This document shows positions 6,655 to 46,696 of a stretch of DNA of 52,995 nt, piece after piece; the first letter of the stretch is position 1; each line of letters begins with the position of its first letter. The stretch covers positions 4,467-57,461 of the forward strand of contig JAGQRI010000023.1 in NCBI GenBank assembly GCA_020425515.1. The letters are read 5' to 3'. This DNA comes from Planctomycetota bacterium. GTDB lineage: Bacteria; Planctomycetota; UBA8742; UBA2392. The translations under genes were made by a program, and so were the position numbers. The notes beneath the pieces were generated by a model that ran no database searches, was not told where the DNA came from, and saw only the letters and a program-made list of their open reading frames with translations.

Positions 6655-7971
6655 CTACTTGTAGATCTCTTGCAGCAACAACTCGCCGGCGCGGAGCAGT
6701 TTCTGGTCCATGCTGCTGGCGGCCAGAGGTAGCAGGTTGGCGCGGGTGTCCTTGCGGTACTGGTCGATGCGATCCTTGCTGCGCCCCGAGTTATCGAGCG
6801 TTCGCAGGTTGTGAATGCGGTCGCACAGTTTGACGGCGCGCACCCAGCCGGGCGCGTTGCGCAGCCCCTGGTAGTAGCGCTGCAGGCCCATGTCCTTGGG
6901 CGAGCCGTCGCGCTTGTACATCTTGGTGAGCAGCACTACCGCCCCGGACACGCCCTCACCGAACTTGTCCGTCAGTTCCTGCGGCGTGGTTTGCATGTCG
7001 TCTTCGAGCACGTCGTGCAACAGCGCCGCGATCACCTCGTCGTGCTCGCGCAGCTTGACGTCTTCCACCGCAATCAGCGCGACTTCGAGTGGGTGTGTGG
7101 CGTAAGGCGTGCCTTCGTCGCGAACCTGGCCGGCGTGGGCGCGATACATCACCTCGAGCGCCCGCGTGACGTCGTGGTGCAGCCCCGGCTCGAGCTGTTG
7201 AAACAGGCGGGCTTCCAGCGGCTCGCATTCAGCGGGGCGCGTGATTTTCACTTCGGGCGTTGCGGTCTCGGTTTCGTCTTCGTTGTCGCCGCGGTGACGG
7301 TCATCCATTACGCGGCGCAGGTCCTCGAAGCTGATTTCCTTCTCGACCATCAGCACCATCAGGTGAAAAACCAGGTCGCACATCTCGCCGACGAGGTCGC
7401 TGCGGCTCTCGCTCTTGGCCGCGACGATGGTTTCGGTCGCTTCCTCGCCGAGCTTCTTGAGGATCTTGTTGATGCCTTTCTTGAACAGGTAACTGCTGTA
7501 GCTGCCCTCCGGCAGGGTGTCCTTGCGTTCCTGCAGCAGGGTGCGCACGTCGTCCATCAATGCGCCGAGCTGCGCCCCCCACCCCTGCGCGGCTTGTGGA
7601 GCGTCCTCGATTTCACTGAGCACGGCCTTGTTCTTGAACACGGTCTTGAAGAAGCAGTCAGCCTCTCCGGTGTGGCAGGCCGGACCTTCCGGCAGCACGC
7701 GGGCGACCAGGGCGTCGCCGTCACAGTCCAGCTTCAACTCGGCGACGCGCATGATGTTGCCGCTGGTCTCGCCCTTCACCCAGAGCTGTTTGCGGCTGCG
7801 CGACCAGAATGTCACCAGGCCGGTTTCGAGGGTCTTCCTGAAGGCCTCCGCGTTCATCCAGGCGAGCGTCAGCACCGTGCCGTCGCGGGCGTCCTGCATG
7901 ACGCAGGGCATCAGCCCATTGCTGTCGAAACGCAATCCGTCGATCGGCTGGACTTCGGTAAATTCGCTCAT
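6655..7971 (-). CDS. hisIE: Three-domain fusion: phosphoribosyl-AMP cyclohydrolase (HisI), phosphoribosyl-ATP pyrophosphatase (HisE) and a SpoT/RelA/Mesh1-type HD hydrolase domain
   Basis: The start is ATG at 7971, sharing ATGA with the hisF stop; the track's 41-aa extension is rejected. HisI motifs: [29 protein letters not shown]. HisE motifs: [32 protein letters not shown]. Residues about 251-438 carry [31 protein letters not shown] and [13 protein letters not shown], the RelA/SpoT hydrolase signature. Confidence 0.85.
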
Positions 7972-8741
7972 GTTGCCGCTACCTCCGGCGGGCGTATGTT
8001 GATGCCGCGCTCGCGCAAGTACTGCTTCGCCTCGCCCACCGTGTGTTGACCGAAGTGGAAAATGCCGGCTGCCAGTACCGCGGCCGCCCCGCACTCAAGC
8101 CCCTCGGCCAGATGCTCCAGTTTACCAACGCCGCCGGAAGCTATCACCGGGACGGCAGCGGCCTGCGCCGCCTGTTTTGTGAGGTCGAGCTCGAAGCCCT
8201 TGCCGGTGCCGTCGCGATCCATACTGGTCAGCAGGATCTCGCCCGCGCCGAGCTGAACGCCTTGTTTGATCCACTCCAGCGCGTCCCTGCCCGTGTCTTC
8301 GCGCCCGCCTTTCACGTAGACGTGATAGCTGCCGTCTTCCTGTTTGCGGGCATCGACCGCGAGTACCACCGCCTGCTTGCCGAAGCGCTTGGCGCATTCG
8401 CGGATCAGTTCGGGATGGCTGACGGCCGCGCTGTTAATGGCGACCTTGTCCGCGCCGGCCCGCAACAGCCTCTCGAAGTCGTCGACGCTGCGAACGCCGC
8501 CGCCGATGGTGAAAGGGATGCTGAGCTCGAGTGCGCAGCGCCGGGCCAGCTCGACTGTGGTGTCGCGGTTGTCGCTGCTGGCCGTGATGTCGAGGAACAC
8601 CAGCTCGTCGGCTTCCTCAGCGTCGTACCGAAGCGCGCATTCAACGGGGTCGCCGGCGTCGCGCAGCCCGACGAAATTGACGCCCTTGACGACGCGACCG
8701 TCCTTCACGTCGAGGCAGACGATGATGCGTTTGGCAAGCAT
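7968..8741 (-). CDS. hisF: Imidazole glycerol phosphate synthase cyclase subunit
   Basis: [32 protein letters not shown] is a canonical HisF N-terminus, and [12 protein letters not shown] and ASGGVG are also present. The start at 8741 overlaps the upstream stop by 1 nt. The track's longer ORF is an Arg-rich extension. Confidence 0.95.
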
Positions 8742-16868: not shown

Positions 16869-17018
16869 TACGCGGCGTATGGAACCACCCGCGTCACGCT
16901 TTGGCAACCGATGGTCTTGGGGCTTGACACAGGTTGCCGTGCGCACCGACAATTCCGCAACCCCATTGGATTTAAGCCGCGTACGACGGGCAACGCCTAG
17001 ACAGGTGCAAAACGACCC

Positions 17019-18233
17019 ATGGCCACACAAGAAGTGATTCTGCGTCCAGGTGACTCGATCTCTGTACGCCTGGAAGTACCGGGACAGCCCCTGCGGCTTG
17101 ACATGAGCCTTACCCCCGAAGGCATGGCGGTCTCCGGCCCCGTGCCGTTGGGTGCCCCGACGGTGTTCGGGGGCGTATCTCCTGTTGATGAAGCCCAGTC
17201 TCCGGTTGACCTCACGGCGGAGTTCGAGGCGGCGGATGCGCCGGTCGAGCCGCCGCCCGCGCAGAAAATCGAAAGCCTTGCGGCTGTCGAGCCTTTTGAC
17301 AGTCCGATGGAGGCCGTGGACATTCCCTTCGAAGACATCACGGACGACACGGTCGGGGCAGAGGAAGCCACGGTTACGGAAGACGCGACGGCGACCGATG
17401 ACATCGACTTTGACCTCGGTGATTTCGACGGTGAAGAGGACGTCTCGGTTGGCGTGGACATCCCCGGTGACGACGACCTTGGCGGCGGGATCGACATCCC
17501 CGAAGACGACGACCTTGAAGGCGGCGACATCAGCATCGACATTCCGGACGATGACGCCGTGGATATTCCCGGCGACGACGACGTAGGCTTCAGTGCCGAC
17601 GCCATGACGATGGTTCCGCCGACTGGCGGCCGACCTGAACCGGCGCTTTCCATTGAAGACGATGATGCAGGAATGTCGCTCGAAGACATGACCCTGGACG
17701 AGGAGCCGGAATTGGACGCAGAAGGCAATCCCAAAGAGAAATTCCAACCCAACGAAGACGACACGCTCCCGGTCTGGACAGGCAAGGCGCGCACCTACCG
17801 TGACCCGGAAATCGAGAAGAAGAAGAAGGAAACGGCGAAACTTAACAAGGCAGGTCAACCGGCGGCCAAAGGCAAGCCCCCGGCGGGCAAACCCCTTCCG
17901 GGCAAGGCCAAGCTGCCGGGCGCTGCCAAGAAGCCGGTTACCAAGCAGATGAAGAAGCCGACCGGTGGCGTTGCGCCCGCCGCCGCAAAACCGGCGGCAG
18001 GCGGAGGCGGCAACTTCACCGTGTTTCTGTCGCCCCCCAAGGGCGCCGACAAGAAGCAGGCCGCGGCCGAAATCATCGCCGAAATCCAGGGCATCGACAT
18101 GAACTCGGCGGTCGCCCTTGCCGGCAAAATGATCGTTCCGGTGGTGAAAGGCGTCAGCGAGTCGGAAGCCCAGGGCGTTCGCGACCGTTTCAAGGATGCA
18201 GGTCTGTCCTGCCGTATCACCCAGAAGCGCTGA
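17019..18233 (+). CDS. Charge-segregated protein: short N-terminal domain, long acidic repeat region, Lys/Pro/Ala-rich basic region, and a C-terminal ribosomal L7/L12-CTD-like domain
   Basis: 404 aa. The last 70 aa or so (FTVFLSPPKGADKKQAAAEIIAEIQGIDMNSAVALAGKMIVPVVKGVSESEAQGVRDRFKDAGLSCRI) align by eye with the L7/L12 C-terminal domain ([66 protein letters not shown]). Confidence 0.7.
   Translation: MATQEVILRPGDSISVRLEVPGQPLRLDMSLTPEGMAVSGPVPLGAPTVFGGVSPVDEAQSPVDLTAEFEAADAPVEPPPAQKIESLAAVEPFDSPMEAVDIPFEDITDDTVGAEEATVTEDATATDDIDFDLGDFDGEEDVSVGVDIPGDDDLGGGIDIPEDDDLEGGDISIDIPDDDAVDIPGDDDVGFSADAMTMVPPTGGRPEPALSIEDDDAGMSLEDMTLDEEPELDAEGNPKEKFQPNEDDTLPVWTGKARTYRDPEIEKKKKETAKLNKAGQPAAKGKPPAGKPLPGKAKLPGAAKKPVTKQMKKPTGGVAPAAAKPAAGGGGNFTVFLSPPKGADKKQAAAEIIAEIQGIDMNSAVALAGKMIVPVVKGVSESEAQGVRDRFKDAGLSCRITQKR
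17457..17587 (+). repeat. In-frame tandem repeats encoding four DIPxDDD units
   Basis: gacatccccggtgacgacgaccttggcggcggg and gacatccccgaagacgacgaccttgaaggcggc are followed by two shorter copies. They are translated as DIPGDDDLGGGI, DIPEDDDLEGGDISI, DIPDDDAV and DIPGDDDVG. Confidence 0.85.
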
Positions 18234-18258: not shown

Positions 18259-18528
18259 ATGAAGATCAACAAGCATGATGATGGCTCGGCCACGCTCGAA
18301 AGTGACCACGGAAATTTCACCTTCTCGGATGACGAGTTCGACGATCTCGTCCACGCCATCCCCATCAGCACCACGCACCTGTATCGTCTGCTGATCGACA
18401 CGCTGATCGAAGGGGACGAGCGCAAACAGCAGATGCGCGCTATCATCGAGGCGACCGGCAACTCGGATGACCAGCTGACGCTGCTCCAGAATGAAGCCTT
18501 GAAGCACGTGCCGGGGGACGACGACTAG
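18259..18528 (+). CDS. Small acidic hypothetical protein (89 aa)
   Basis: ATG at 18259 with AGGGA 5 nt upstream; it starts 25 nt after the previous gene ends and ends 3 nt before the FHA gene starts. I recognise no motif. Confidence 0.55.
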   Translation: MKINKHDDGSATLESDHGNFTFSDDEFDDLVHAIPISTTHLYRLLIDTLIEGDERKQQMRAIIEATGNSDDQLTLLQNEALKHVPGDDD

Positions 18529-18531
18529 CCA

Positions 18532-19362
18532 ATGCCTGCGACGCTGCGCTGGAACCGACTGGTGATCGCCGCCGAGACCGAAGAAGAATTCATCTCGGCG
18601 GTGTTCGACTATTTCCCCCAGCTGCTACAGCTTCCGTACGAGCAAGTCGAGATGGACATCACCGGCACCGAGGAGATTTCCGAGGACGCCTTTCGCAGCA
18701 TCGCCATCAAACTGATCGGCGGCGAAGCGGCGGAAAAGAAGGTGCTGATCCGCATCCCGCCAAGCGTCGACCGCTACTTCCGCCACGCCAACCTTTACCG
18801 GATGGTCGACGTGGACGTCGTCCATCCCATGCCGGGCAACGGCAAGGTGGACGCCGCCAAGGTCAAGGCCAACATCAAGGGCGCCAAGTACGAGGCCGTG
18901 AAGGCGCCCAAGAAGGCGCCGCCGCCTCCGGAAATGACCGAGCGTGCACCCGCGAACCTCTCGCCCGAGGCGGTCGAGCTTCAGCCGGAACCGGCCAAGA
19001 AGCAGAAGCCGCAAAAGGCGTCACGTGCGCCCGATAAAGGCACGAAGGCCGACGTCGGCTACCTCGTTGACGTGGAGACCGGCTCGAGGCACGAGATTCG
19101 CAAGACCATCATGATCGGGCGCGAGCCGCCCAGCGACCTCGTGTTCCAGATCCCGACCATCAGCAAGCGCCACTTTCAGATCCGCAAGGAAGGGGATGGC
19201 TTCCTGATTGAGGATATGCGGTCCACGAACGGTACCTACCTGAACGGCCTGCCCGTCCACGAGCCGGTGCCCCTGCGCGACGGCGATGAAGTCGTCGTGG
19301 CGATTACGCTGAAACATCCGAAGGGCGCGCGCATCTTCCAGTTCACAACCAAGCCGGAATAG
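18532..19362 (+). CDS. FHA-domain protein with an uncharacterised N-terminal domain and a K/P/A-rich linker
   Basis: The C-terminal IMIGREPPSDLVFQIPTISKRHFQIRKEGDGFLIEDMRSTNGTYLNGLPV matches the FHA pattern (GR, SR-H, STNGT-N). The N-terminal 110 aa or so loosely resemble a STAS-like fold, which is speculative. Confidence 0.85.
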   Translation: MPATLRWNRLVIAAETEEEFISAVFDYFPQLLQLPYEQVEMDITGTEEISEDAFRSIAIKLIGGEAAEKKVLIRIPPSVDRYFRHANLYRMVDVDVVHPMPGNGKVDAAKVKANIKGAKYEAVKAPKKAPPPPEMTERAPANLSPEAVELQPEPAKKQKPQKASRAPDKGTKADVGYLVDVETGSRHEIRKTIMIGREPPSDLVFQIPTISKRHFQIRKEGDGFLIEDMRSTNGTYLNGLPVHEPVPLRDGDEVVVAITLKHPKGARIFQFTTKPE

Positions 19363-19425: not shown

Positions 19426-21378
19426 TTGGCCAAGTTGAAAATCCAGTCCAATGAACAGGGACCCGCCCTCAGCGGCGGCGCGATGTTCGTCAAGCTGATG
19501 GGGCTCGTGGTCATGAGCGCCGCCCTGCTTGGCGTGATCTCCATGCTGTTGACCTACTCATGGGAAGACAAGCGCGAGTCGTGGGACTGGAAGCCGGAAG
19601 ACATCCGCACCAATTTCGATCCGCTGATGACCAGCGACCAGATCAAGAAGCTCTTTGCCGACAAACGCCGGGAATGGATGACCGGCAACCCCATCAATGA
19701 ACTTCCCAAGGGCGTCGAAGGCGAAGACGACCCGCGCAAGGCCAACAAGCCCGCCGACAACGGGACGCCGCTGCCGTTCGGCAACGATGGCGATACCGGC
19801 GAGCTGCCCCCGCCCGGCGAATTCAAACCCCGCCACGGGAAGGACCAGCGCGAGGAAACCAGGCTCGATGAAGCGCGCGAGCTGAAGCTGGCCGAGAAAC
19901 TCAGCGACAAACGGCAGTTCGAACTGCTTGAGGAAACCCAGAACCTGCTGGACTGGATTCCGTTCGAGGATTCCTCGCGCGAAAAAACCATGAACGAGTT
20001 CGCGGCCTTCAAGGGCCGCCAGGCGCCCACCAACGAACAACTCGCCCTGCAGATCATGAGCAAACTGCCGGCGCCCGGCGCGGCGGATTACGCAACCTTC
20101 ACTGGCCGAACCGAGAAAGATGGCTGGTACTGGGGCAAGAGCCAGGGTGCAATCGACAAGTACCGAGGCCACGTGTTCGAGGTCGAAGGGCGGCTGTTTG
20201 ATCTTTACGAGATAAAGCCTGACGAGCCGATCGTGCTTCAGGATGGCACGAAAGTCGACTCCTACTATGAGGGTGTCGTTGCCTTACTCGGGCCGGGAAT
20301 GGCACGCGGTGACCACGCCGTCGAGCAGCGGGTGGTTGAATTCCAGTCGCTGACCGTGCCGGACGGCCTCGCAGAGTACGTCAACACCAGCGGCCACGTC
20401 TCACACGACGACAAGCTTGTGACCGCCAAGGTCATGGTGAAGTTTCACGGCGCGTTTCTGCGGCGCTGGATATACAGCCGCGAAGTCGCCCCCTACAGCA
20501 CGGCGGCCAAGCAGGTTCTGTCGCAGGATCACTCGCCGTTGCTGTTGACGCCCGACCTCGCGCAGTCCGCGACCGAGCCCTACCAGCTCACCGACAAGCT
20601 GCTGCAACAGGTAAAGGATGCGCTTCGGGACGACCCGGTGTTCCTCGAAACCGAGGCCGCGTACTACACCATGCTGGCCAAGGCCAACGACCCGGATGAC
20701 TCGATCGAGGTCAACGACGAGATCGGCTACTTCGACCTCGCAGGCGAGGAGACCGGCCCCCGCTACCGCGGCCAGGGAATCCGCGTCGTCGGCATGGTGG
20801 GTGACAACTACGCGCCGGTAATTCTTCCACCGAACGTCAGCGGGCTGCGGCGCGTGTTCCGCACCCTGGTGCTGGACGACACGGCTAACCTGCAGTCGCC
20901 CAAGCGCTACATGGTCGACATGATCGAGCCCCCCACCGGGCTGGAACCTCGTGCGATCGTGGACTTCAGCGCGCGCTACTACCGCAATGTGTTCGAGACC
21001 GAAAGCGCGAGCTCAACGGTTCGCCCGCTGCTGATCGTGCGCCGGGTGGAAGGACTGAAACAAAAGGGTGCGGGGCACGAGTGGATCTACGCGCTGCTGG
21101 GCGTGATAGGCATCCTTCTCCTGATGGCAGTGCTGACCTGGTTCATCCTCAGTGAACGCCGCGAACGCGCCCGGTTTGAGGCCAACACGCTCGAGCTGTC
21201 CCGCAGCCGAGTCAAGAAGGGCGCGCTGAAACTCAAGCCGCTGCCGGGCGGCAAGGGCAGCCCGCCGGAGGCCAAGCCGGACCCGGAAGACGCAGGCAGC
21301 AAGGGCGCAGAAACGCCCGCCAGTTCCGATCCGGAAGGCAAATCCGAAGCAGACGACGGTAGCGCCGACAAGGAATAG
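19426..21378 (+). CDS. Large hypothetical membrane protein with two TM helices flanking a roughly 520-aa domain
   Basis: TTG start 7 nt after AAGGAG. TM1 is FVKLMGLVVMSAALLGVISMLLTY and TM2 is WIYALLGVIGILLLMAVLTWFIL. It has a charged C-terminal tail and no motif I recognise. Confidence 0.75.
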   Translation: MAKLKIQSNEQGPALSGGAMFVKLMGLVVMSAALLGVISMLLTYSWEDKRESWDWKPEDIRTNFDPLMTSDQIKKLFADKRREWMTGNPINELPKGVEGEDDPRKANKPADNGTPLPFGNDGDTGELPPPGEFKPRHGKDQREETRLDEARELKLAEKLSDKRQFELLEETQNLLDWIPFEDSSREKTMNEFAAFKGRQAPTNEQLALQIMSKLPAPGAADYATFTGRTEKDGWYWGKSQGAIDKYRGHVFEVEGRLFDLYEIKPDEPIVLQDGTKVDSYYEGVVALLGPGMARGDHAVEQRVVEFQSLTVPDGLAEYVNTSGHVSHDDKLVTAKVMVKFHGAFLRRWIYSREVAPYSTAAKQVLSQDHSPLLLTPDLAQSATEPYQLTDKLLQQVKDALRDDPVFLETEAAYYTMLAKANDPDDSIEVNDEIGYFDLAGEETGPRYRGQGIRVVGMVGDNYAPVILPPNVSGLRRVFRTLVLDDTANLQSPKRYMVDMIEPPTGLEPRAIVDFSARYYRNVFETESASSTVRPLLIVRRVEGLKQKGAGHEWIYALLGVIGILLLMAVLTWFILSERRERARFEANTLELSRSRVKKGALKLKPLPGGKGSPPEAKPDPEDAGSKGAETPASSDPEGKSEADDGSADKE

Positions 21379-21409: not shown

Positions 21410-22495
21410 ATGGATGCCACCGTCGTTCCCGTATCGCTGGATCAGCGCAGCTATGACGTAGTAGTCGGCGAGCGCCTGCTTGAGCAGATGCGCGATTTCG
21501 CTGAATCGGAAAAGCCGACTTCGATTTTCCTGGTCACAGACAGCAACGTCGGCCCGCTGCATGCCGAGGCCGTACAGAACGCGATCGTTGCCAATCACGT
21601 TTTCACGGTGCCGGCCGGCGAGTCGAGCAAGAGCCTGGTCCAGCTTGGCAAGCTTTTCGATCAACTGTTCGCAACCCGCCACGTGGACCGGCATTCGCTG
21701 ATCGTTGCCTTGGGCGGCGGCATGGTGGGCGACCTTGCCGGTTTCGTCGCGGCGACGCTGTTGCGCGGCGTGCGCTGCATGCAGGTCCCGACCAGCCTGC
21801 TTGCGATGGTTGATTCCAGCGTGGGCGGCAAGACGGCCGTAAACCACGCCAGCGGCAAAAACCTGATCGGTGCATTCCACCAGCCGGCCGCCGTGTTCTG
21901 CGACATGCACTTCCTCCGGACGCTGCCTAAGCGCGAGTACGTGAGCGCGCTGGGCGAGGTCGTGAAGACCGCTGCGATTTCCGGTGAGGACCTGCTGGCA
22001 ATGCTGGAAGACTGCGCCGACGGGCTGATTGGTCGCGACCTGGTGACGCTCCATCGCGTCATTGAGGCCTGCATCCGTTTCAAGGCGGAGGTCGTAAGCG
22101 ATGACGAGATCGAAACGACAGGGCGGCGCGCAACGCTGAATTTTGGCCACACCTTGGCGCACGTGCTGGAAGCGCTATGGCCGGAGCGCTGGCTGCATGG
22201 CGAGGCTGTCTCGATCGGAATCATCGCCGCGTTGCGCCTGTCCGTTGCGCGCGCCAAGCTGGACGAATCGGTGGCGGCGCGCGTCACAGGACTGCTGCGG
22301 AAGTTCGGCCTGCCCACCGTCGTGCCCGACGAGTTGCAGGCGCGGCAGATGCTGGAGTGCATGTCCGCCGATAAGAAGCGCGCGGGCCAAGCCGTCCACT
22401 TTGTCGTGATCTCGGATGTCGGCCAGGCCGGCACTCTGCCGTGCAAGCTCGACGACGAACTCGCCGCGACGCTGCTGGGGCGCGGCGATGCATGA
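21410..22495 (+). CDS. aroB: 3-dehydroquinate synthase
   Basis: GGGMVGDLAGFVAATLLRGVRCMQVPTSLLAMVDSSVGGKTAVN and GKNLIGAFHQP are canonical AroB motifs. Confidence 0.95.
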   Translation: MDATVVPVSLDQRSYDVVVGERLLEQMRDFAESEKPTSIFLVTDSNVGPLHAEAVQNAIVANHVFTVPAGESSKSLVQLGKLFDQLFATRHVDRHSLIVALGGGMVGDLAGFVAATLLRGVRCMQVPTSLLAMVDSSVGGKTAVNHASGKNLIGAFHQPAAVFCDMHFLRTLPKREYVSALGEVVKTAAISGEDLLAMLEDCADGLIGRDLVTLHRVIEACIRFKAEVVSDDEIETTGRRATLNFGHTLAHVLEALWPERWLHGEAVSIGIIAALRLSVARAKLDESVAARVTGLLRKFGLPTVVPDELQARQMLECMSADKKRAGQAVHFVVISDVGQAGTLPCKLDDELAATLLGRGDA

Positions 22496-23594
22496 GCTCG
22501 AGGCAAAAGTGGCGCTGGTCGTCGCCCGCAAGTTCACGCCGCTCGGCATGACCAACCTGCTGAAGCGGTTCGGAAGCGCCAACGGCGTTGTGAGTGCCGC
22601 GAAGACCGAGATCAACAAGGTGCCGAAGGTGAATCGCCAAGGTGCCGACGCGCTGGCGGAAGTAATCCAGAAGGGCCAGCACCTGCGTGAAATCGAAGAG
22701 TGCGGGAAACACGGAATCACGCTGCTGCAACTCGAAGACAAGGGCTACCCGCAACTCCTGAAACGCATCGATGACCCTCCGCCATTGCTGTACGTCCGGG
22801 GCGAGATCAACGAGATGGATGACCTTGCCATTGCCATCGTTGGCGGGCGGCAGGCCAGCTACTACGGCACGGCGCAGGCGGCGCGTTTCGCCCGGGACTT
22901 TGCGGTGCGCCGCGTGACCGTTGTCAGCGGGCTGGCACGCGGCATCGACACGGCCTCGCACCGTGCGGCGCTGGAAGGCGGCGGGCGCACGATTGCCGTT
23001 GTCGGCAGCGGGCTGCTGGATATCTACCCGCCCGAGAACAAACAGTTCGCCGACGAGATCGCCGAGAATGGTGCCGTCATCAGCGAGTTCCCGCTGCATA
23101 CGCCCGGTGTCGCGCGGAACTTCCCGCAGCGTAACCGGATCATCTCCGGCCTCAGCCTCGGCGTGCTGGTTGTTGAAGCGACCCGCAAATCGGGCTCGTT
23201 GATTACCGCGCGTCTGGCGGCCGAGCAAGGGCGCGAGGTCTTCGCGCTGCCGGGCAAGGTCGACAGCGACCTCAGCCAAGGGCCGCACGATCTGATTCGC
23301 GAGGGCGCCCACCTCGTCGCCGAACCCGACCACGTCTACGACGGGCTCGAAATGCTGCGCCTGCTGCCGGAAGAAGCCGCACCCGAGAAAGAGGACCGGC
23401 AGCCGCAAGGCATGTCCCCCACCGAGTCGGCCCTGTGGGCAAAGCTGCAACCGAGCGACGGGCTGACCGTGGACGAGTTGATGCACAAGACCGGGCTTGC
23501 GGCGAACCAGATCGCCAGCGGCCTGCTTACCCTCGAAATGAAGCGCCTTGCCAAGCAGTTGCCGGGAAAGCGTTACGTGCGGCTGGATGCCTGA
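22488..23594 (+). CDS. dprA: DNA-processing protein DprA/Smf
   Basis: In-frame ATG at 22488 (MHELEAK), overlapping aroB by 8 nt. SGLARGIDTASHRAALEGGGRTIAVVGSGL, FPxRNRIISGLS and a C-terminal winged-helix-like region are present. Confidence 0.9.
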   Translation: MHELEAKVALVVARKFTPLGMTNLLKRFGSANGVVSAAKTEINKVPKVNRQGADALAEVIQKGQHLREIEECGKHGITLLQLEDKGYPQLLKRIDDPPPLLYVRGEINEMDDLAIAIVGGRQASYYGTAQAARFARDFAVRRVTVVSGLARGIDTASHRAALEGGGRTIAVVGSGLLDIYPPENKQFADEIAENGAVISEFPLHTPGVARNFPQRNRIISGLSLGVLVVEATRKSGSLITARLAAEQGREVFALPGKVDSDLSQGPHDLIREGAHLVAEPDHVYDGLEMLRLLPEEAAPEKEDRQPQGMSPTESALWAKLQPSDGLTVDELMHKTGLAANQIASGLLTLEMKRLAKQLPGKRYVRLDA

Positions 23595-27460: not shown

Positions 27461-28498
27461 TTACTTCTGGATGCAGCCGTGTGTGTAGTGGAAGAGACTG
27501 CTTGGCACGGCACGCTCCAGCACCGTCTCCTCTACGGCGATGCGCAACAGCCCCCAGGCTCGGGTATCGAACGGGGTGCGCCAGAACTGGAACCTGTCGT
27601 GGCGCTCCATACTGCCGAGATCGCCGCGTGAGATGGATAGCCACGAGCTGAATCGCGAGTATCCTCCCGGCCAGTTATACACCGCCGTTGTCCGGGGCTG
27701 CGTCAACGACCATCGGCGATCCTCATCGTAAATGGAAAGTGAGATTTCTGTATCGAAGGGGTTGGCGATCCTCGCGCTCAATCGCGTACCTTTGTCGTCA
27801 ATTTGTCCGAAATCGTAGGTCACCGAAGACCAGGTGTGCACCGTGTCGTTTCCGGTGGCAGAAGCCGGTTTTTGCGGTTGTCCTTGCTCGGTAGATTTCA
27901 GGGACTTGCTGTCAGCGGGGTTGGAGCCGAGGCCGTAGGGAATCAGGAACCAATGGCGTTCCTTCAACATGTCAATCCGGACCCAGTAGTCTTCAAAGTC
28001 GGCTGGGAGATAGTCGAAGAAGATCATCATGTCACCGGATGTTCCTAGCCCACCACCGACCCAGAAACCGATCACCGGCTCGCCGTTGGTTGGCTTGCGC
28101 ACGACCTTGTCTGCGAGAATGATGGCGGCCTGAACATCCCCCTTTTCGGGCGACTTGTGCTTTGCGCGTTCTTCATCGGAAGCCATGGTGCCTGGGCCGC
28201 TCCACACAAGGTCGAAGCGGAGCCTGTCTTCCTTGTCTTGCGACAGACTGACAGAACAAGGACCCCACGGGGTTTTCGTGCTCGAATACTGGATCTCTTC
28301 AAAATTGTGCGGGGCTTTCTGAACGGCGTCAGTTGATACCGTGTCATTCTCGCGGAATTGCCCTCTCGGCCACCAGTCGCCCCACGTATCTACAGGCGCC
28401 TTGGAAGCCTCTTGGCCAAAGGTGTGTTGTGGGGAACGCTGGCCGACGGCAAAGAGCAGCAGGGCTACCAAAACCAGCATGAATGCGCGTTTGGACAT
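27461..28498 (-). CDS. Secreted hypothetical protein, Trp/Asp-rich, in a lower-GC segment
   Basis: Signal peptide MSKRAFMLVLVALLLFAVG and no recognisable domain. Two 60-nt lines I counted (27721-27840) are 50% GC, below the 60-65% I estimate by eye for the rest of the window. Confidence 0.7.
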   Translation of the reverse strand: MSKRAFMLVLVALLLFAVGQRSPQHTFGQEASKAPVDTWGDWWPRGQFRENDTVSTDAVQKAPHNFEEIQYSSTKTPWGPCSVSLSQDKEDRLRFDLVWSGPGTMASDEERAKHKSPEKGDVQAAIILADKVVRKPTNGEPVIGFWVGGGLGTSGDMMIFFDYLPADFEDYWVRIDMLKERHWFLIPYGLGSNPADSKSLKSTEQGQPQKPASATGNDTVHTWSSVTYDFGQIDDKGTRLSARIANPFDTEISLSIYDEDRRWSLTQPRTTAVYNWPGGYSRFSSWLSISRGDLGSMERHDRFQFWRTPFDTRAWGLLRIAVEETVLERAVPSSLFHYTHGCIQK

Positions 28499-33490: not shown

Positions 33491-35101
33491 TCAGCCCCCG
33501 ATGCGAATGCTGTGCATGCCCAGCCAGGCCAGGGAATTCACGACGTCGAAGAAGGTCTGGACCGGCTCGTCCCGCGGCATTTTGACAAACAGCGCCTCGG
33601 GGTCCTGTTTGCGCTCGGTGGCCCAGCGCGCGAGGGTCGAAGGGAACGATGCGCCCGTTGTGTTGCGCTTTTCGCCGTCCAGGAGCATCTCGATGCGGTA
33701 GTCCGCCTCGACGACGGCGCCCACGCGATCGACCTGCACGGCGGCCAGTTTGTCTTGTGCCGGGTCTTCACCGGCCGGGCGGCTGAGATCCAGCAGGCGC
33801 AGCGTCGGTCCCAGGATGTCGCTGGTCACGACCAACACCCGCCCGCAGAGGGAAAGGCGCGCCATCTCCAGGACGGCCAGCAGAGTTTCCCAGCGGGCTT
33901 CGCGGGCAATGCACAGCAGCACCTGCAAGTCGCTCTTGCCCGTGTCGAAGTCGACTTCTCCGGCGTTGCGCTGCATGGCCTGCACGACCTCCTGGTCGTC
34001 GCTGTGCTGCGTCCAGTCTGGTGCTTCGCGGGTGCGGGTGGCGTACTTTCCGTCCGCGGTTGCGCGAATTGCCAGCAGCGGCAAATCTGCATCGAGCGTA
34101 GCCGCCGGCGGCAGCCCGCGGTCGGCGGCTGATGCGCGCCAGAAGTCCGACATGGTCGGCGGCTGGATGTCCTTCGCGACGCCGAGCTTATCCTCGAAGA
34201 CAGCCAGCTCGCGGCGCGCTTTGACGACTTCGGGCGCGTCGGGTTTCGCCTCAAGCACCGGCCAGAACGGCTCCACGTCGCTGTAGCCGACAGGCGCGAG
34301 CAGGTTGGCGGCGTCGGCAAAGTCTCCGACATTCGCTTCGCCCGGCAACTCGAACTGCACGCGGGTCGCACGTGCCTTGAAGAAATCCAGTTTGCCCTTC
34401 ACGCCGCCGCGCCAGTCTTCGCCGCTGAAGACAACCTGCTCGCCCGGCGTGCTGGCCCACGCGAGCCCGACCTTGGTTTCCTCGCCGGATTCCTCGCTGA
34501 ATCGCAGCGTGACTTCGGCAGCCTTTTTCGGCAGCGTGTACCACTCATTGAAGACCTGCTCGACGTCGACTTTCAGCGGCAGCAGGCGGAAGGCGTTGTC
34601 GCGATTGTCGTGGGTGACCAGCCACAGGTTGCGTACCTGCAGGTCCACGAGTTCGCGGCACAGTTTCAGCAGCGACGTGTACGGCGCCCGGGCGTCGGCG
34701 AACAGGACCAGCGCCGCGCCGGTTGCCTTTTCTTCTTCATTCCATTCGCGTTTGGCGAGCGTCTCCATACCGGAACTGATGCCTGCCAGCGACTGCGAGC
34801 GGAACTCACCGTCGCGATATTCGGCGAAGCCGCCGTCCGCCCCGAGACGTACCACTTTGACAGCGCGCTCGCCGATGGCGGCCTTGACCGGGTAGATATT
34901 GCCGTTGCGGGTTTCAGCGAGCGTCCAGTACGCCGTGAAATCCGGCAACTGCATGCCCTCTGCAAGCTTGCCGGTATCGAATGCGACCAGCCGGGAGACC
35001 TTGCCGGTCGGGGTGACTGTGGAATTGCCGGCGTCGTTGCCGCTGCCGCAAGCCGCCAGCAGAAGCGCCAAGGCAATCAGGGGGATTGGGGTATGCCTCA
35101 C
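33491..35101 (-). CDS. Lipoprotein containing three ExbD/TolR-like repeats
   Basis: GTG start overlaps the upstream stop (GTGA). Lipobox LLLAAC. Three segments each align by eye to the ExbD core TIFFRGDKTVDYETLMKVMDTLHQAGYLKIGLV. They are ALVLFADARAPYTSLLKLCRELVDLQVRNLWLV, LQVLLCIAREARWETLLAVLEMARLSLCGRVLVV and ALFVKMPRDEPVQTFFDVVNSLAWLGMHSIRIG. Confidence 0.7.
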   Translation of the reverse strand: MRHTPIPLIALALLLAACGSGNDAGNSTVTPTGKVSRLVAFDTGKLAEGMQLPDFTAYWTLAETRNGNIYPVKAAIGERAVKVVRLGADGGFAEYRDGEFRSQSLAGISSGMETLAKREWNEEEKATGAALVLFADARAPYTSLLKLCRELVDLQVRNLWLVTHDNRDNAFRLLPLKVDVEQVFNEWYTLPKKAAEVTLRFSEESGEETKVGLAWASTPGEQVVFSGEDWRGGVKGKLDFFKARATRVQFELPGEANVGDFADAANLLAPVGYSDVEPFWPVLEAKPDAPEVVKARRELAVFEDKLGVAKDIQPPTMSDFWRASAADRGLPPAATLDADLPLLAIRATADGKYATRTREAPDWTQHSDDQEVVQAMQRNAGEVDFDTGKSDLQVLLCIAREARWETLLAVLEMARLSLCGRVLVVTSDILGPTLRLLDLSRPAGEDPAQDKLAAVQVDRVGAVVEADYRIEMLLDGEKRNTTGASFPSTLARWATERKQDPEALFVKMPRDEPVQTFFDVVNSLAWLGMHSIRIGG

Positions 35102-37330: not shown

Positions 37331-37373
37331 AGGACGATAAACAGGTATCTGATTGCGGATTCGGGACAAAACC

Positions 37374-39395
37374 ATGAATCGACTTACTGTGTTACTTGCG
37401 CTGTTCGTGTTTGCGGCACTTTCCACGACTGCTGCATTGGCCTTCTCGCAGGACGCCAAGCCCGTCGCCACGGAAGCAAGCAAAGACGGCGAAACGGCCA
37501 AGCCTGCTGCTGACCGCGAAACCGGCGATGCCAAGGAGGGTGAGGAAGGCGAAGACGACGACGTAGTCGACGCCGGCATCCCCGCCGATTTCAACGCCTA
37601 CCTGAAGAAGCTGTATCCGAACCTCGACCCGGGTGGCGAGCACGACCTGTTCAACCTGAAGAACTATGTGAACGCTGAAAAGCGCTTCCACTACACCGTC
37701 AACATGACCCAGTTGCTGCTTGAGTACATGAAGACGCTCGGGCTCGGCTCCACGATCTCCAAGCTGTTCGACCAGTACTCACGGGGCAAGCAGGGCAACC
37801 AGCCCACCTTCAAGGTGCTGCACGCCATCGAAATGATGTACTACCCGCCGGGCCAGCCCAATGTGGTCGGGGCGCAGAAACTACTGCGCGAAGCGGCCGA
37901 AAAGGCGCCCGATTACGCGTACCCCTGGTACGTTCTCGCCCAGTTCGAGTACGCGCGCTTCACCGGCGCCATGCAGCAAGGCGGCGACGTCAGCCCGCGC
38001 GCCGTCTTGCAGATGATCGACAAGGCGCTCGAGATCCGGCCCCAGTTTCTCCGGGTGGTGCTGCTGAAGGGGCAGGTTTTCATGCAGGCGAAGCCGCCGC
38101 GTACATCCGACGTGCGCGAGCTGATTGAGCCCTGGATCGACGTCAAGAAGCTGCCCGCCGATGCCGAGGAATTCGAAGACACGCTGCGCCTCTACATTGC
38201 GTCGCACAAGGCTGAGCAGTTCTTTGAACTGGTCGGGAAGCTGGCAGCTTCCAGCAAGCTCTCGGCGCGGCAGCGCGTTGCGATGGAAATCTTTGCCGGT
38301 GAAGTTGCCCGCCAGACCAACAAGGTTGATGAGGCTATCGGCCACCTGGAAGAAGCGATCAAGTTTGCCGACGCGAAGGATAACCCGGCCGCGGCGATGA
38401 GCGCGCACCGGTCGCTGTCGCTGTGCTGGTTCCTGAAGGCCAGCGACATTCACGAGAAAGACCCGGAGTTGACGGACAAAGAGAACAAAAAGAAGTTTGA
38501 AGAGTTCCGGGAAGCCGCCCGGGCCGAGAACCTGCTGTGTGCCGGCATCGAGCGCGACAACATGCCGCTGAGCCTGCGCGGGTCGGCAGCCGGGCAGTAC
38601 GCGCAGTTCATCTGGAAGGCCATGGAGAAGACCGAGGAAGCCAAGAAGTGGCTCGACGCCTACCTGGAAGAAACCGATCTCTCCACCGCGCACCGTAATC
38701 AGCTCGAGAACCTGAGCGACCTGATCGGCCTGGAGTTGGACCCGACCGAAGAAGGCCTGATCAGACGCTACAAGGGCCAGGTCGAGCGTGACGAGATGGA
38801 GGAACTTGCGAACAGCCTCGGATTGGTCTTGGCCAGAAACCAGCGAGACGCCGAGCACTTCAAGCAACAGGCTTCGCTTGACTTCTTCCTCAGTCAGCTC
38901 GACAACCGGAACCGTCTGGTCGTGGAGTTTGTGGCCTTGCTGGCCGCTGACACGGCTTTGCAGATCGGTGGCGAGCAGGTCGAGAAGACGGCCAAGGCAA
39001 TCACCGACCGTTTCGTCAAGGAAACTGAGTTGAACTCGGAGTCCCAGGCCCACCTGCAGGAGCATCTGTGCGTTGCCATTCAATTCACCTCGCACAAGCC
39101 TTCAATCGAACGGGCGGTTCGCCAGTCAGCAAAACTCATCGATGGCGCGCAGGACAACGTTGATATTCGTACGTTGATGCGCGGCATCGTAAACGTCTGG
39201 AAGGACCCCGCATTCCTGGCCGGTTTCGAGCCGCCGATTCCGGAGCCGTCCCGCACGGCGCTGTTCCGACCGCAAGGGGCGATTGACTGGCTGAATGATG
39301 AACTCGCTGACCGGGTCAAGGAGGACATCGAGCAGGAAAGCGCGAAGGACAAGCCGGACGATGGCGGTAAAGAGGGTGACGGCGCTGAAAGGTAG
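37374..39395 (+). CDS. Secreted helical-repeat (TPR-like) hypothetical protein
   Basis: ATG at 37374 gives the signal peptide MNRLTVLLALFVFAALSTTAALA. An acidic segment follows, and the rest looks alpha-helical and repeat-like. Confidence 0.75.
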   Translation: MNRLTVLLALFVFAALSTTAALAFSQDAKPVATEASKDGETAKPAADRETGDAKEGEEGEDDDVVDAGIPADFNAYLKKLYPNLDPGGEHDLFNLKNYVNAEKRFHYTVNMTQLLLEYMKTLGLGSTISKLFDQYSRGKQGNQPTFKVLHAIEMMYYPPGQPNVVGAQKLLREAAEKAPDYAYPWYVLAQFEYARFTGAMQQGGDVSPRAVLQMIDKALEIRPQFLRVVLLKGQVFMQAKPPRTSDVRELIEPWIDVKKLPADAEEFEDTLRLYIASHKAEQFFELVGKLAASSKLSARQRVAMEIFAGEVARQTNKVDEAIGHLEEAIKFADAKDNPAAAMSAHRSLSLCWFLKASDIHEKDPELTDKENKKKFEEFREAARAENLLCAGIERDNMPLSLRGSAAGQYAQFIWKAMEKTEEAKKWLDAYLEETDLSTAHRNQLENLSDLIGLELDPTEEGLIRRYKGQVERDEMEELANSLGLVLARNQRDAEHFKQQASLDFFLSQLDNRNRLVVEFVALLAADTALQIGGEQVEKTAKAITDRFVKETELNSESQAHLQEHLCVAIQFTSHKPSIERAVRQSAKLIDGAQDNVDIRTLMRGIVNVWKDPAFLAGFEPPIPEPSRTALFRPQGAIDWLNDELADRVKEDIEQESAKDKPDDGGKEGDGAER

Positions 39396-39441: not shown

Positions 39442-39877
39442 ATTGGATCAACCCGGCCGTGCGCAGGTGTGCATCGGCGGCGCGCAGGACCTCACGCATT
39501 TGCTCGAAGGGAATCTTCTGCAGGGCGTCATTGAGCGTGAACCAGCCGTGGTCGCTGTGTTCGGGACTGCGTTGCACGTTCGATTCGTCCGTGGCGGCGA
39601 GCATGTAGTCGACGCGCTTGTGGTACTTGCCGCGCTCGGTGTCCACGTCGTACTCGATGGTCCCTGTGAAGCCCTCGACAGGCGTGACCTGGCTGATGCC
39701 GGTTTCTTCCTCCAGCTCTCGTCTGGCGGTTTGCAGCGGGCCGGTGTCTTCCGGGTCGGCGTGGCCTTTCGGGGGGAGCCAGTTGCCGTGGCTGCTGCTG
39801 CGCATCAGCAGGTATTTGGCCACTCCGTTTTCGATGTGTGCCAGCACGAAGCCGGCCGCGGTTCGGGTTTCGCTCAT
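39440..39877 (-). CDS. NUDIX hydrolase (Ap4A-hydrolase-like size and box)
   Basis: ATG at 39877 shares ATGA with the upstream stop. The Nudix box is GHADPEDTGPLQTARRELEEETGI. Confidence 0.85.
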   Translation of the reverse strand: MSETRTAAGFVLAHIENGVAKYLLMRSSSHGNWLPPKGHADPEDTGPLQTARRELEEETGISQVTPVEGFTGTIEYDVDTERGKYHKRVDYMLAATDESNVQRSPEHSDHGWFTLNDALQKIPFEQMREVLRAADAHLRTAGLIQ

Positions 39878-40824
39878 GGCGCCTCGTCGATCTTCCATTC
39901 GTTCCCGTCACGCACGACCGGCACGGAAACCGTGCGCTCATCCGTGTCACCCGTACGCTGGAGTTTCAGTTTGACGCGTACGGTGGCGCGTGCTGGGTCG
40001 TCCTCTTCGATCACGGAATCCAGGATTTCCCACGACATCAGGCGCTTGCGTAGCTTGTCGAGTTTGGCGGTTACGTCTTCCAGGTTGCTTTCGCTGACCC
40101 GGCGGGTGGGGTGACAGTCCAGCAGCCGGTCCGCGTCGCCCTTCTCGATCGCTTTCCAGGCCGTCTCGACGACCCGCTGCGGCGTCGCGAAGGGTGAGTC
40201 ACCGGCGTCGCTCTCGGCGAGCTCGGCGCGCAGGCGGGCCAGCTCTTTTCGCAGCGCGGTTTCCTGCGCGTCCAGCTCGGTGCGTTTTTCCGTGATCAGC
40301 TTCAGGGCCTGTTCGATTCGCTCAATCCGCTCGGCGGGTGTCAGCGTTTCCACTGGTTCACCGATGCGGGGGATCGAGTACCAGCGCCAGTGCGTGCCGT
40401 CTTCACTGAGCGTCATCTTCACGCGGAACTTTTCGGTGGCGCCCTCTTTGGTGTCCATACTGATCACGAGTTCGGCGCGCCCGTTCTCAAGGTCCGGCTT
40501 GGGTTCCTCAAGAATCTTCACGTTGCGGCTGCGGTAGGTTTCGCGGAACTGCGTGCTGCCGAACAGCGCGAACCATTGCGACCGCAACTCCGTTTGCTCG
40601 TCCTCCGTGTAGACCTTGCCTTCTTCAGCAGAGCGCTCTTTCAGCCAAGTGTCGAAGTCGAAGTAGCGCTCGAAGGTGGCCTGCTGTGCGTCGGCATCAA
40701 TGTCTTTGTCGAGCACGGCGTTGACGAAAGCCTCGTAGGATTCGCGCGGCGTCTGCGACGCGTCGTCGGCCAGCACGGTGCAGACAAGCAGCATCAGGAA
40801 GGCGATTGCGGCGGATGTGCGCAT
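39874..40824 (-). CDS. Secreted hypothetical protein: two similar roughly 110-aa domains joined by a coiled coil
   Basis: Signal peptide MRTSAAIAFLMLLVCTVLA. The central segment AERIERIEQALKLITEKRTELDAQETALRKELARLRAELAE looks like a coiled coil. The flanking halves look NTF2-like, which is inference. Confidence 0.7.
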   Translation of the reverse strand: MRTSAAIAFLMLLVCTVLADDASQTPRESYEAFVNAVLDKDIDADAQQATFERYFDFDTWLKERSAEEGKVYTEDEQTELRSQWFALFGSTQFRETYRSRNVKILEEPKPDLENGRAELVISMDTKEGATEKFRVKMTLSEDGTHWRWYSIPRIGEPVETLTPAERIERIEQALKLITEKRTELDAQETALRKELARLRAELAESDAGDSPFATPQRVVETAWKAIEKGDADRLLDCHPTRRVSESNLEDVTAKLDKLRKRLMSWEILDSVIEEDDPARATVRVKLKLQRTGDTDERTVSVPVVRDGNEWKIDEAP

Positions 40825-40867: not shown

Positions 40868-41221
40868 ATGGGTTTGACAGGTCAAGCCATGCTGATGACG
40901 ACGACATCGGGGCTCGAGGGCTTCGTGATCACCAAGTATCTCGGGCTGGTTGCCGGGCAGGCGGCGATCGCACCGGTTGAGCTGCGCGATTTCGCGAACT
41001 TCATCCGGCGCGAAGGCGGCGGGCGACACCCCGAGTTCGAGCGCATGATCCTGGAAACCCGCCACTCCGCCATGATGAGCCTCGAGGGCCAGGCACAGGA
41101 GTTGGGGGCCAACGCCATCATCGGCGTCAGCTTCGACTACGCCAACCTCGCCAGCGACGGCCTGGTGCTGATCACCGTAAGCGGCACCGCCGTCCAGGCC
41201 GAAGACAAGAAGAACCTTTAG
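40868..41221 (+). CDS. YbjQ/UPF0145 family protein
   Basis: MLMTTTSGLEGFVITKYLGLV, ANAIIGVSFDY and ITVSGTAV match the family pattern. The true start may be ATG at 40889. Confidence 0.85.
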   Translation: MGLTGQAMLMTTTSGLEGFVITKYLGLVAGQAAIAPVELRDFANFIRREGGGRHPEFERMILETRHSAMMSLEGQAQELGANAIIGVSFDYANLASDGLVLITVSGTAVQAEDKKNL

Positions 41222-41300
41222 GCACACAAGCCAGGAACTGCAGGCCTCGCGCAGAGATAAGGAGGCCGCAGAGGACTGCTGTTGGCAGTCGTCTTTCTCC

Positions 41301-41339
41301 GCGGTCCCTGCGCACACTGTGCGAGGTCCGCTTTTCTTT
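41301..41339 (+). terminator. Intrinsic terminator candidate after the YbjQ-like gene
   Basis: gcggtccctgcgca / cact / gtgcgaggtccgc forms an imperfect 13-14 bp stem with 2 mismatches and 2 G-U pairs, followed by ttttctttg. Confidence 0.5.
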
Positions 41340-41375
41340 GTGGCTTAGTGTCTTCGTGTGGGCTAATCCATAGCC

Positions 41376-42365
41376 ATGGAGCTCGATCACCTTCACGGTT
41401 TCAACCCGCACGCGAAGTTCCCGGTGTTCGTGGTGCTTGGGCCCACGGCGAGCGGCAAGTCGCGCCTTGCCGTGCAGGTCGCCGAGCGTGTCGGTGGCGA
41501 GATCCTGAGTGTCGACGCGCTCAAGGTCTATCGCGGCATGGATGTCGGCACGGCCAAACCGACCGCGGATGAACTCGAACGCATCCCCCACCACGGCATC
41601 GACCTGGTGGACGCGAGCGATGAATTCAGCGTCGCCGAGTTCATCGACTACGCGCAGCCGAAGATCGCCGAGATCGTGAAGCGCAGGCACGTTCCGGTGC
41701 TGGACGCCACCGCGCCGTACTACCTGAAAGCGCTGGTCTACGGCATCGACCGCGGACCCGGCCCGCAGCCGGAATTCCGCGACGAAATGGAACAGCGCCC
41801 GCTGGACGAAATCTACGCTGAACTGCAGCAGAAGGACCCGGCCCGCGCCGAGAGCATCGGCCCCACCGATCGCAAACGCCTGGTGCGCGCGCTGGAGATC
41901 ATCCACTTCGGCGAGAAGCTTCCCAGCGAAGTCGAGCAATGGGGCAAACCGCGCGGGAACTACCGCTGGATTTTCACCGGTATTCGCTGGCCGCGCGAGA
42001 TGCTGTACCAGCGCGTGAAAGAGCGCGCGGAGAAGATGTTCCAGAACGGCTGGCTGCACGAGGTGCAGACGATCCTGGCGGGGAAGGGCTTCTCGAGTAC
42101 CAGCGGCAAGGCCCACGGCTACCGGCGGCTGCAGCAGTACATTGCCGGTGAGTTGACGTGGGAAGAGTGCATCGAGGAAACGGTCCGCGACGTCAAGCAG
42201 TTCGCGCGCAAGAGCATGACGTTCTTCAAGGGCTTCCCGAAAGTGCAGTGGCTGGACGTGACCACGGAAGAGGAAATTGACCGCGCGGCCGCGTACCTCA
42301 GCCATGAGTTGAAGGACATGCTCAGCCAGTGCGGCGTGCCCCGGGACGAGATCGATCTGCCGTGA
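41376..42365 (+). CDS. miaA: tRNA dimethylallyltransferase
   Basis: VVLGPTASGKSRLAVQVAE (P-loop), ILSVDALKVYRGMDVGTAKPT, HHGIDL and RALE are present. Confidence 0.9.
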   Translation: MELDHLHGFNPHAKFPVFVVLGPTASGKSRLAVQVAERVGGEILSVDALKVYRGMDVGTAKPTADELERIPHHGIDLVDASDEFSVAEFIDYAQPKIAEIVKRRHVPVLDATAPYYLKALVYGIDRGPGPQPEFRDEMEQRPLDEIYAELQQKDPARAESIGPTDRKRLVRALEIIHFGEKLPSEVEQWGKPRGNYRWIFTGIRWPREMLYQRVKERAEKMFQNGWLHEVQTILAGKGFSSTSGKAHGYRRLQQYIAGELTWEECIEETVRDVKQFARKSMTFFKGFPKVQWLDVTTEEEIDRAAAYLSHELKDMLSQCGVPRDEIDLP

Positions 42366-42449: not shown

Positions 42450-43256
42450 ATGGGTGCGGTAACGATGCCCAATGCCGAATCGCCCGGAAACGGCGGCGCT
42501 GCCATCGTGCGTGCGCGCTCCCGCCATGATGCAGGCGCGCTGGCCTCGGGCTATACCCGCCTGCAGCACTGGCTCAACGTTCTGGGGCTCTGTGCTTTCT
42601 GCGTTGCGGCGGTACTGGTCGGCGCGCACGTCTTTTCGCGGCCGGTGGGCTGGATTTCGCTCACGGTTGGTTTCCTGGCGGGCTGGGTGCTGACCGATTT
42701 CATCTGCGGCATGATTCACTGGGCGGGCGACACGTGGGGCCGAACCGGCATGCCGATCCTCGGGCGCATGTTCGTGCGCTCGTTCCGCGAACACCATGTG
42801 AACCCGCGCGCGATTACACATCACGGCATGGTCCAGTTGCTTGGTGAGCAGGCGATTGTGGCGGCGCCGATGCTTCCGATGCTGTGGTTCTACGAACCGG
42901 AAGAAGAACTCGGCGTCACGCTGCTGGTTTCGGTCTACACGGCATTCAACGCTTCGCTTGCGGCCAACGTGTTTCATCGCTGGGCGCACATGCGCAAACC
43001 GCCGTTCATTGCCCGCTTGATGCAGCGCACGGGACTGATCATCGGCTACCGCCACCACGCGCGGCATCACCGCCCGCCCTATTTGCGCAACTACTGCATC
43101 GCCATCGGCTGGCTCAATCCGCTGCTGGACGGCGTGCGCTTCTGGCGCGGGCTGGAATGGCTGATCTGGAAAACCACCGGCGCGGTCCCCCGCGAGGACG
43201 ACCTCGGGCGCGAAGCCGCCCTTGCACTCATGCGCGGCGAAGCCCGCCCCGACTAG
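42450..43256 (+). CDS. CarF/TMEM189(PEDS1)-family membrane desaturase-like protein
   Basis: Histidine clusters HWAGD, REHHVNP, THH, HRWAH and HHARHH lie among hydrophobic segments. The pattern matches my memory of the Kua/TMEM189/CarF family. Start chosen at ATG 42450. Confidence 0.75.
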   Translation: MGAVTMPNAESPGNGGAAIVRARSRHDAGALASGYTRLQHWLNVLGLCAFCVAAVLVGAHVFSRPVGWISLTVGFLAGWVLTDFICGMIHWAGDTWGRTGMPILGRMFVRSFREHHVNPRAITHHGMVQLLGEQAIVAAPMLPMLWFYEPEEELGVTLLVSVYTAFNASLAANVFHRWAHMRKPPFIARLMQRTGLIIGYRHHARHHRPPYLRNYCIAIGWLNPLLDGVRFWRGLEWLIWKTTGAVPREDDLGREAALALMRGEARPD

Positions 43257-46578: not shown

Positions 46579-46696
46579 GTACGCGCCCGTCCCGGAGTTC
46601 AAGGCCTGCGCTTAGGGCGTGCTATGGACTCTTTTCCGCACCATGTCTGGTCCTGTCATCCGGTTCGCATCCGGTATGATGGTTTCCGAGGACCGG

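Follow-up and report, generated by a model that had tools for sequence, protein, structure and literature searches.

A bL12-derived head on a long disordered tether in a non-ribosomal stalk-protein paralogue of Planctomycetota

The 52,995-nucleotide (nt) stretch of DNA analysed here (the window; Planctomycetota bacterium, GenBank assembly GCA_020425515.1, contig JAGQRI010000023.1, positions 4,467 to 57,461) carries a gene at 17019..18233 (+; 404 amino acids (aa) plus stop) that encodes a non-ribosomal paralogue of the ribosomal stalk protein bL12 (L7/L12). The C-terminal head of this protein is genuinely homologous to the C-terminal domain of bL12, though diverged from it, and it belongs to a large Planctomycetota superfamily whose more frequent form carries two such heads with a disordered tether between them; the window protein represents a one-headed, 'type 1', form. 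The face of the head made up of helices 4 and 5, which in bL12 binds the translation factors, has been replaced. On balance we favour a reading in which the protein is a repurposed bL12-derived tethered head that works with the two genes downstream of it as a scaffold or adaptor for a conserved partner, and not as a decoy or recruiter for GTPases. What is new here is a known domain in an undescribed architecture, with an altered functional face, in a large and uncharacterized family at the level of the phylum.

In single-sequence scans the head remained below threshold, matching PF00542 at E 0.033 (15 bits, cut-off 25.9) and TIGR00855 at E 3e-4 (21.2 bits, cut-off 84.4). When the profile of the family was compared with all PDB sequences, mitochondrial bL12 ranked first (E 0.007). 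A head-only search of 1.84 billion representatives returned 184 cluster representatives with the domain, and 39 of the 96 that were scanned match PF00542 directly at E <0.01 (best E 2.3e-73). Against a reference profile of the C-terminal domains of 19 canonical bL12 proteins from the same clade and that of Escherichia coli, hhalign aligned the family at a probability of 95.7% (E 8e-9), gapless over 66 columns, and the superfamily at 98.4% (E 9e-15). AlphaFold2 models the head as beta-alpha-alpha-beta-alpha-beta with a predicted local distance difference test score (pLDDT) of 84-90. Foldseek with this model placed E. coli 1ctf first (template modelling score (TM) 0.88, root-mean-square deviation (rmsd) 1.5 A, 23% identity), and VIA, an aligner independent of Foldseek, placed Mycobacterium tuberculosis L7/L12 first (Z 10.2, rmsd 1.9 A, 70 residues). 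Identity of the head to bL12 is 20-28%. As the PDB profile search, the PF00542 intermediates, hhalign and the fold searches all agree, we conclude that the head and the C-terminal domain of bL12 are homologous. An initial annotation, made from the sequence of the window, had aligned the last 70 or so residues with this domain by eye and had proposed profile and structure comparison as checks; the alignment holds gaplessly over about 74 residues, and both comparisons give significant matches to bL12 where that annotation had allowed that there might be none.

The protein is nevertheless distinct from the stalk protein of the ribosome, as the initial annotation had also proposed. A canonical 133-aa rplL lies directly after rplA and rplJ on another contig of the same genome (G000:C347), and 19 of the family's 21 genomes carry both an rplL and the L12-like gene; an rplL match is lacking in two, which are 86% and 76% complete. 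A search of the genome with the head recovered this gene only, the true rplL being a weak second match (E 0.04). The N-terminal dimerization and L10-binding domain of bL12 was not found, and the full-length protein matched no Pfam family at E up to 10. The gene is flanked by genes for an ABC ATPase and an FHA protein and does not lie in the rplKAJL cluster. The presence of a canonical rplL elsewhere and the missing bL12 N-terminal domain argue that this is not ribosomal bL12. Weak PF00542 matches elsewhere in the genome fall in tsf and in a radical-SAM gene and were set aside as chance matches. In public databases proteins of this kind are named either 'hypothetical protein' or 'ribosomal protein L7/L12', and the second name is a misannotation, because the same genomes carry a canonical rplL. 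JGI gives this name to proteins of 250-1260 aa (P0015, P0027, P0051, P0061, P0068, P0074, P0136 and P0142).

The distribution of the protein, which the initial annotation had wished to see mapped, was examined in 401 Planctomycetota genomes spread evenly across the phylum. Close orthologues (E <1e-35) of the one-headed protein are present in 19 of 19 genomes of the GTDB family to which the window belongs, with one copy in each, but are absent from both sister-family genomes (0/2). About 104 further genomes, from many families, have a weaker match to the head. A match is present in 124 of the 401 genomes. Among 40 distant loci that were fetched (L078-L117), 35 encode a two-headed form with an N-terminal and a C-terminal copy of the domain (e.g. 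L113:7200-8234), in which the first head is followed by LPK(I/V)(D/N)WPxRP, often by a CPxC zinc-ribbon element, and then by a long acidic, Pro- and Ala-containing linker. There is usually one copy of the two-headed protein per genome. In the AlphaFold2 model of one such protein (m356cc547a94c) both ends fold with a pLDDT of 91-96 into the same topology around a disordered middle. The N-terminal and C-terminal heads align with each other in hhalign at a probability of 94%, and with bL12 at 92% and 97% respectively. A fold search with the two-headed model again returned M. tuberculosis L7/L12 first (Z 11.2) but listed the C-terminal head alone; the evidence for the fold of the N-terminal head is thus its topology and the hhalign result. 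The N-terminus of the window protein has no detectable similarity to the first head of the two-headed form. A wider set of metagenomic proteins (P0071-P0075 and P0086) shares the one-headed plan; two metagenome scans for these proteins found no loci. The neighbours of the two-headed relatives include an epimerase, a thiolase and proteins of no known function, and no coherent function was seen among them.

That 17019..18233 is a real gene under strong purifying selection is clear from its composition and its substitution pattern. The GC content by codon position is 0.70/0.45/0.72, which matches hisZ, aroB and the adjoining genes. Two long open reading frames (ORFs) overlap it on the opposite strand; such frames are usual in DNA of 63% GC, and theirs is the inverted codon-position GC typical of antisense. 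In the C-terminal 83 codons compared with 11 orthologues, dN/dS is 0.035-0.18 at a dS of about 1. Added to this are 68 homologues with a common architecture, whose length variation is in frame, and a confident fold prediction. It is therefore the + frame that codes, as codon-position GC is gene-like, the antisense frames are inverted and dN/dS is low. The proposition that this is a chance ORF, or that the opposite-strand frames are the real ones, which the initial annotation had kept in view, has next to no probability, and codon-position GC and dN/dS together rule out the opposite strand as the true reading. The start of translation is the ATG at 17019 and not an internal Met29, because residues 1-28 are kept in all full-length homologues in an alignment of 27 (A1); the database gene call for this protein (P0003, 376 aa) begins at Met29, at 17103 rather than 17019, and so drops these 28 conserved residues. 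A sigma-70-like site at 16924-16953 was no better than chance expectation and was rejected.

The architecture of the protein was derived from alignment A1 and from an AlphaFold2 model built on it. An N-terminal module (residues 1-42; 17019..17144, +) is conserved in the alignment and is modelled as three short beta strands over residues 13-38 (pLDDT about 81). It belongs to no known family and has no profile similarity to bL12 or to the first head of the two-headed relatives. By composition, alignment and model, residues 55-240 (17181..17738, +) form a disordered acidic block with 63 Asp or Glu (34%) and three Lys or Arg in 186 residues, in which short islands are conserved (SLAAVEPF, AVDIPF, DDLDLDLGDL and GFSADAMTMVPPT). 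The initial annotation was right about this acidity, and it had also described four in-frame DIPxDDD tandem repeats within the block. There are indeed four DIPxDD units, at residues 147, 159, 174 and 182 (nt 17457-17579), with a fifth and weaker unit, DIPFED, at residue 101. At the DNA level the four units are carried by 31-nt direct copies (17453..17588, +) that are 61-84% identical, at irregular spacings of 36, 45 and 24 nt, and Tandem Repeats Finder did not call them. Given the irregular spacing and the missing call, these are degenerate in-frame direct repeats and not a clean tandem array. In the alignment, orthologues differ freely, and in frame, in how many DIPxDD units they have and in how long their two charged blocks are.

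After the acidic block comes a linear motif at residues 248-275 (DTLPVWTGKARTYRDPEIEKKKKETAKL; 17760..17843, +), the core of which, LPxWxGxAxxY, is invariant in 66 motif instances and takes the form LPxWTGxARxY in the window protein. AlphaFold2 gives a pLDDT of 61-70 over the motif and a helix at residues 263-275. Directly behind the invariant motif and a KKK stretch, the orthologues conserve a Thr (residue 272 in the window protein) whose +3 position is L, I or V. The motif is found once or twice in more distant proteins that share the C-terminal head, two of which have PWTGSARxY twice before it, and since these distant proteins carry both, the motif travels with the bL12-like head. A basic, disordered linker of variable length (residues 276-330; 17844..18008, +) leads to the head and is rich in Lys, Pro, Ala and Gly; residues 255-330, which had been recognized as having this composition, contain 18 K, 15 A, 11 G and 11 P in 76 residues. 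A GGCGGC(A) microsatellite at 17993-18012 encodes the Ala/Gly run directly before the head and is a likely source of the variation in linker length. The head itself (residues 331-404; 18009..18230, +) is near-invariant: orthologues with an overall identity of 34-76% share 75-100% identity in this region.

The initial annotation had suggested that a free bL12 head on a polyampholyte tether could serve as a decoy or recruiter for translational GTPases; in this reading the head would bind EF-G, EF-Tu, IF2 or RF3 off the ribosome, or concentrate them. In its favour, the head is truly homologous to that of bL12 and shares its fold, the K65 and VKGVS loop of the head resemble those of bL12, and the plan of tether plus head mirrors that of the stalk. 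In bL12, IF2, EF-Tu, EF-G and RF3 all dock at a conserved site of positive charge on helices 4 and 5 (PMC6753160). We took the location of the site from that work and, as its residues, the positions that are invariant in bL12 here, and tabulated the columns for bL12 (this clade and E. coli), 65 family members and 131 superfamily domains. In the family of the window protein V/I66 becomes Q, I69 becomes A, K70 becomes E (88%), R73 becomes A (95%), E82 becomes S or A, K84 becomes L, M or V, E88 becomes G and P91 becomes I. The replacements in the positive site include a reversal of charge at K70 and the loss of R73 and K84, whereas every one of these residues is retained in the bL12 of the clade itself; across the 131 superfamily domains the same face is variable. 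Because the helix 4/5 residues are replaced and the face varies in this way, a role as decoy or recruiter is unsupported, and we regard it as improbable.

A further suggestion of the initial annotation was that the protein simply reuses the fold, which ClpS shares, and from this it could be proposed that the head is an adaptor that recognizes N-degrons or docks on a Clp or other AAA+ unfoldase. The shared fold is borne out, in that ClpS chains lie near bL12 in the fold searches (VIA Z 9.0-9.4 against 10.2; Foldseek TM 0.65-0.75), and the Atlas lists an architecture of AAA ATPase with PF00542 in Actinomycetota. However, bL12 outranks ClpS in TM-score, rmsd and identity (20-28% against 11-15%), the ClpS Pfam family (PF02617) has no match to the head at E up to 10, sequence profiles tie the domain to bL12 and not to ClpS, and neither clpA nor another AAA+ gene is adjacent or was seen in the window, all of which makes a ClpS-like function very improbable. 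A different possibility is that RNA, DNA or another polyanion is bound by the basic linker together with the head's basic tail, and that the acidic block competes from within the same molecule, in the manner of the acidic tail of HMGB1-type proteins. The Lys/Pro/Ala linker resembles histone H1 in composition, the acidic and basic blocks adjoin, and a pair of basic residues ahead of helix 4, a further one behind helix 5 and a basic tail, GRITxKK, are conserved in the superfamily. On the other hand this reasoning is from composition alone, the net charge of the head (median +2) is the same as that of the clade's bL12 C-terminal domain, the protein as a whole is strongly net negative, and Pfam and NCBIfam scans gave no match to a nucleic-acid-binding family; we consider such binding unlikely, if less so than the two preceding proposals. 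An argument from the charge of the head was dropped, as net charge does not separate it from the clade's bL12.

The scaffold or adaptor that we favour would make use of the plan of the stalk, which the window protein keeps: its N-terminal module is small, its flexible tether very long and its C-terminal head compact. The flexible tether of about 290 residues could let the small head search for and hold a new partner, which is the physical principle of the stalk, while the N-terminal module and the linear motif may anchor the protein to something else. The head would in this way capture a partner that is itself highly conserved, because the head is near-invariant, and it would be neither a decoy nor a recruiter of translational GTPases. 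In the lineage of the window the protein might, with lower confidence, act jointly with an 89-aa protein and an FHA phosphothreonine reader encoded beside it.

The gene for the 89-aa protein (18259..18528, +) starts 25 nt downstream of the gene for the L12-like protein and is present at 22 of 22 related loci; its product is acidic, belongs to no known family and has no Pfam, NCBIfam or PDB match. The FHA gene (18532..19362, +) follows after 3 nt and is present at 21 of the 22 loci. It encodes a 276-aa protein with an N-terminal domain without a family, a basic linker and a canonical FHA domain (PF00498, E 3e-19). The profile of this protein matched only FHA entries in the PDB. Its N-terminal domain has no Pfam STAS match at E up to 10 and aligned with 12 STAS domains of this clade at an hhalign probability of 1.3%; Atlas feature matches include STAS clusters at low scores (0.77-0.78). 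A full-length paralogue of the FHA protein occurs in the same genome (G000:C346; L121:7339-8184; 40% identity), with an acidic and not a basic linker, and the sister family has an orthologue (L120:7216-8205). Next, 63 nt after the FHA gene, is a gene for a 650-aa protein with two transmembrane segments (19426..21378, +), followed by aroB and dprA. In the sister family the two-transmembrane protein (about 30% identity) keeps its place before aroB and dprA (L119:4273-8497; 21410-22495 and 22416-23594 in the window) and is preceded by glmS, and there is no L12-like, small or FHA gene at that locus. Since the sister family keeps this gene in place without the other three beside it, the lineage-specific unit is a trio and not a set of four, and the membrane protein is a separate, older neighbour. 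PADLOC returned nothing for these four proteins.

FHA domains in general prefer a Thr with a hydrophobic L, I or V at +3. The conserved Thr-x-x-L/I/V beside the linear motif is thus a lead as a site that the FHA protein possibly reads, although a helix is predicted over the Thr-x-x-L/I site, and more distant relatives that bear the motif lack the site. Prediction of a complex of the L12-like and FHA proteins, with the 89-aa protein as the scored partner, gave a score of 0.00, which carries no verdict either way. Several other observations also weigh against the reading that we favour. The function is inferred from architecture alone and the partner is only postulated. The trio loci all belong to a single GTDB family, and synteny there extends over the entire neighbourhood, so that adjacency is weak evidence for a functional link; the paralogue of the FHA protein and its sister-family orthologue are not beside any L12-like gene, the two-headed relatives in other lineages have no FHA neighbour, and no Ser/Thr kinase or phosphatase gene was found in the window. 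The link between the L12-like protein and the FHA protein is therefore only suggestive. In addition, K65 and the structural core of bL12 are kept, which may allow a residual, altered contact with the translation apparatus. A more far-reaching form of the proposal would be that these proteins make up a phylum-wide extraribosomal 'stalk-like' family of fly-casting adaptors for a conserved non-GTPase partner, wired in the lineage of the window to phosphothreonine signalling through the FHA protein and Thr-x-x-Leu; we hold this to be doubtful as a whole.

The window is otherwise housekeeping chromosome. At 6658-8094 (-) a HisIE-type gene (PRA-CH and PRA-PH) has an extra C-terminal HD_4 domain (E 1.5e-16), an unusual fusion for histidine biosynthesis. 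Two adjacent genes at 44513-46222 and 43256-44500 (-) are solute-binding-protein-like, one of them being fused to a von Willebrand factor A domain, and 46619-49255 (+) encodes an 879-aa protein in which a purple-acid-phosphatase-type metallophosphoesterase is combined with several PKD/Ig-like domains. Five ORFs of 316-680 aa (27464-28498, 33494-35101, 37353-39392, 39877-40824 and 41175-42305) matched no Pfam family at E 1e-5.

Hitherto the bL12 head has been familiar almost exclusively as the domain with which the ribosome recruits factors, and here it is reused under strong purifying selection in about one-third of the sampled Planctomycetota genomes, with the known binding face rewritten and the plan of tether and head retained. 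The family thus provides a natural test of which features of bL12 are structural and which are functional, and as the domain is small and folds well, the new partner can be sought directly.

Compared with bL12 itself (PF00542; PDB 1ctf, 8yeq and 6gaw chain CL), the window protein has a homologous head of about 70 residues, of the same beta-alpha-alpha-beta-alpha-beta order and likewise at the C-terminal end of a flexible linker, and it keeps K65, A83, L86, the VKxGVS loop and the hydrophobic core. It differs in being outside the rplJ-rplL operon, in having no N-terminal dimerization/L10-binding domain, in a linker of about 290 residues where bL12 has about 20, in a basic C-terminal tail (CRITQKR), in the replacement of the factor-binding residues of helices 4 and 5, and in falling below the curated cut-offs of both PF00542 and TIGR00855. 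ClpS (PF02617) has the same general fold, but the window head has no sequence-profile link to it, lower identity and no Clp context. Other non-ribosomal architectures with PF00542 have been catalogued, namely a Zn-ribbon with L12 in Bacillota, an AAA ATPase with L12 in Actinomycetota and a 792-aa family in Bacteroidota, and a cyanobacterial orthocaspase with a bL12 C-terminal domain has been mentioned in passing (PMC8283722). In the literature searched we found no study of what bL12 C-terminal domains do outside the ribosome, and the one-headed form, the two-headed form and the 89-aa protein all lack an NCBIfam model. These catalogued proteins are further examples of the reuse of the domain outside the ribosome; they have other partner domains, belong to other phyla and pass the Pfam threshold, which the window head does not. 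The closest comparison is with the two-headed Planctomycetota proteins (alignment A5), whose C-terminal head matches the superfamily profile in hhalign at 99.9% and which likewise have a long acidic, Pro- and Ala-containing disordered tether and usually one copy per genome. They differ in having a second head with LPK(I/V)(D/N)WPxRP and often CPxC, where the window protein has a beta module of about 40 residues and LPxWTGxARxY, and in lying beside epimerase and thiolase genes, whereas the window protein is encoded beside an FHA gene.

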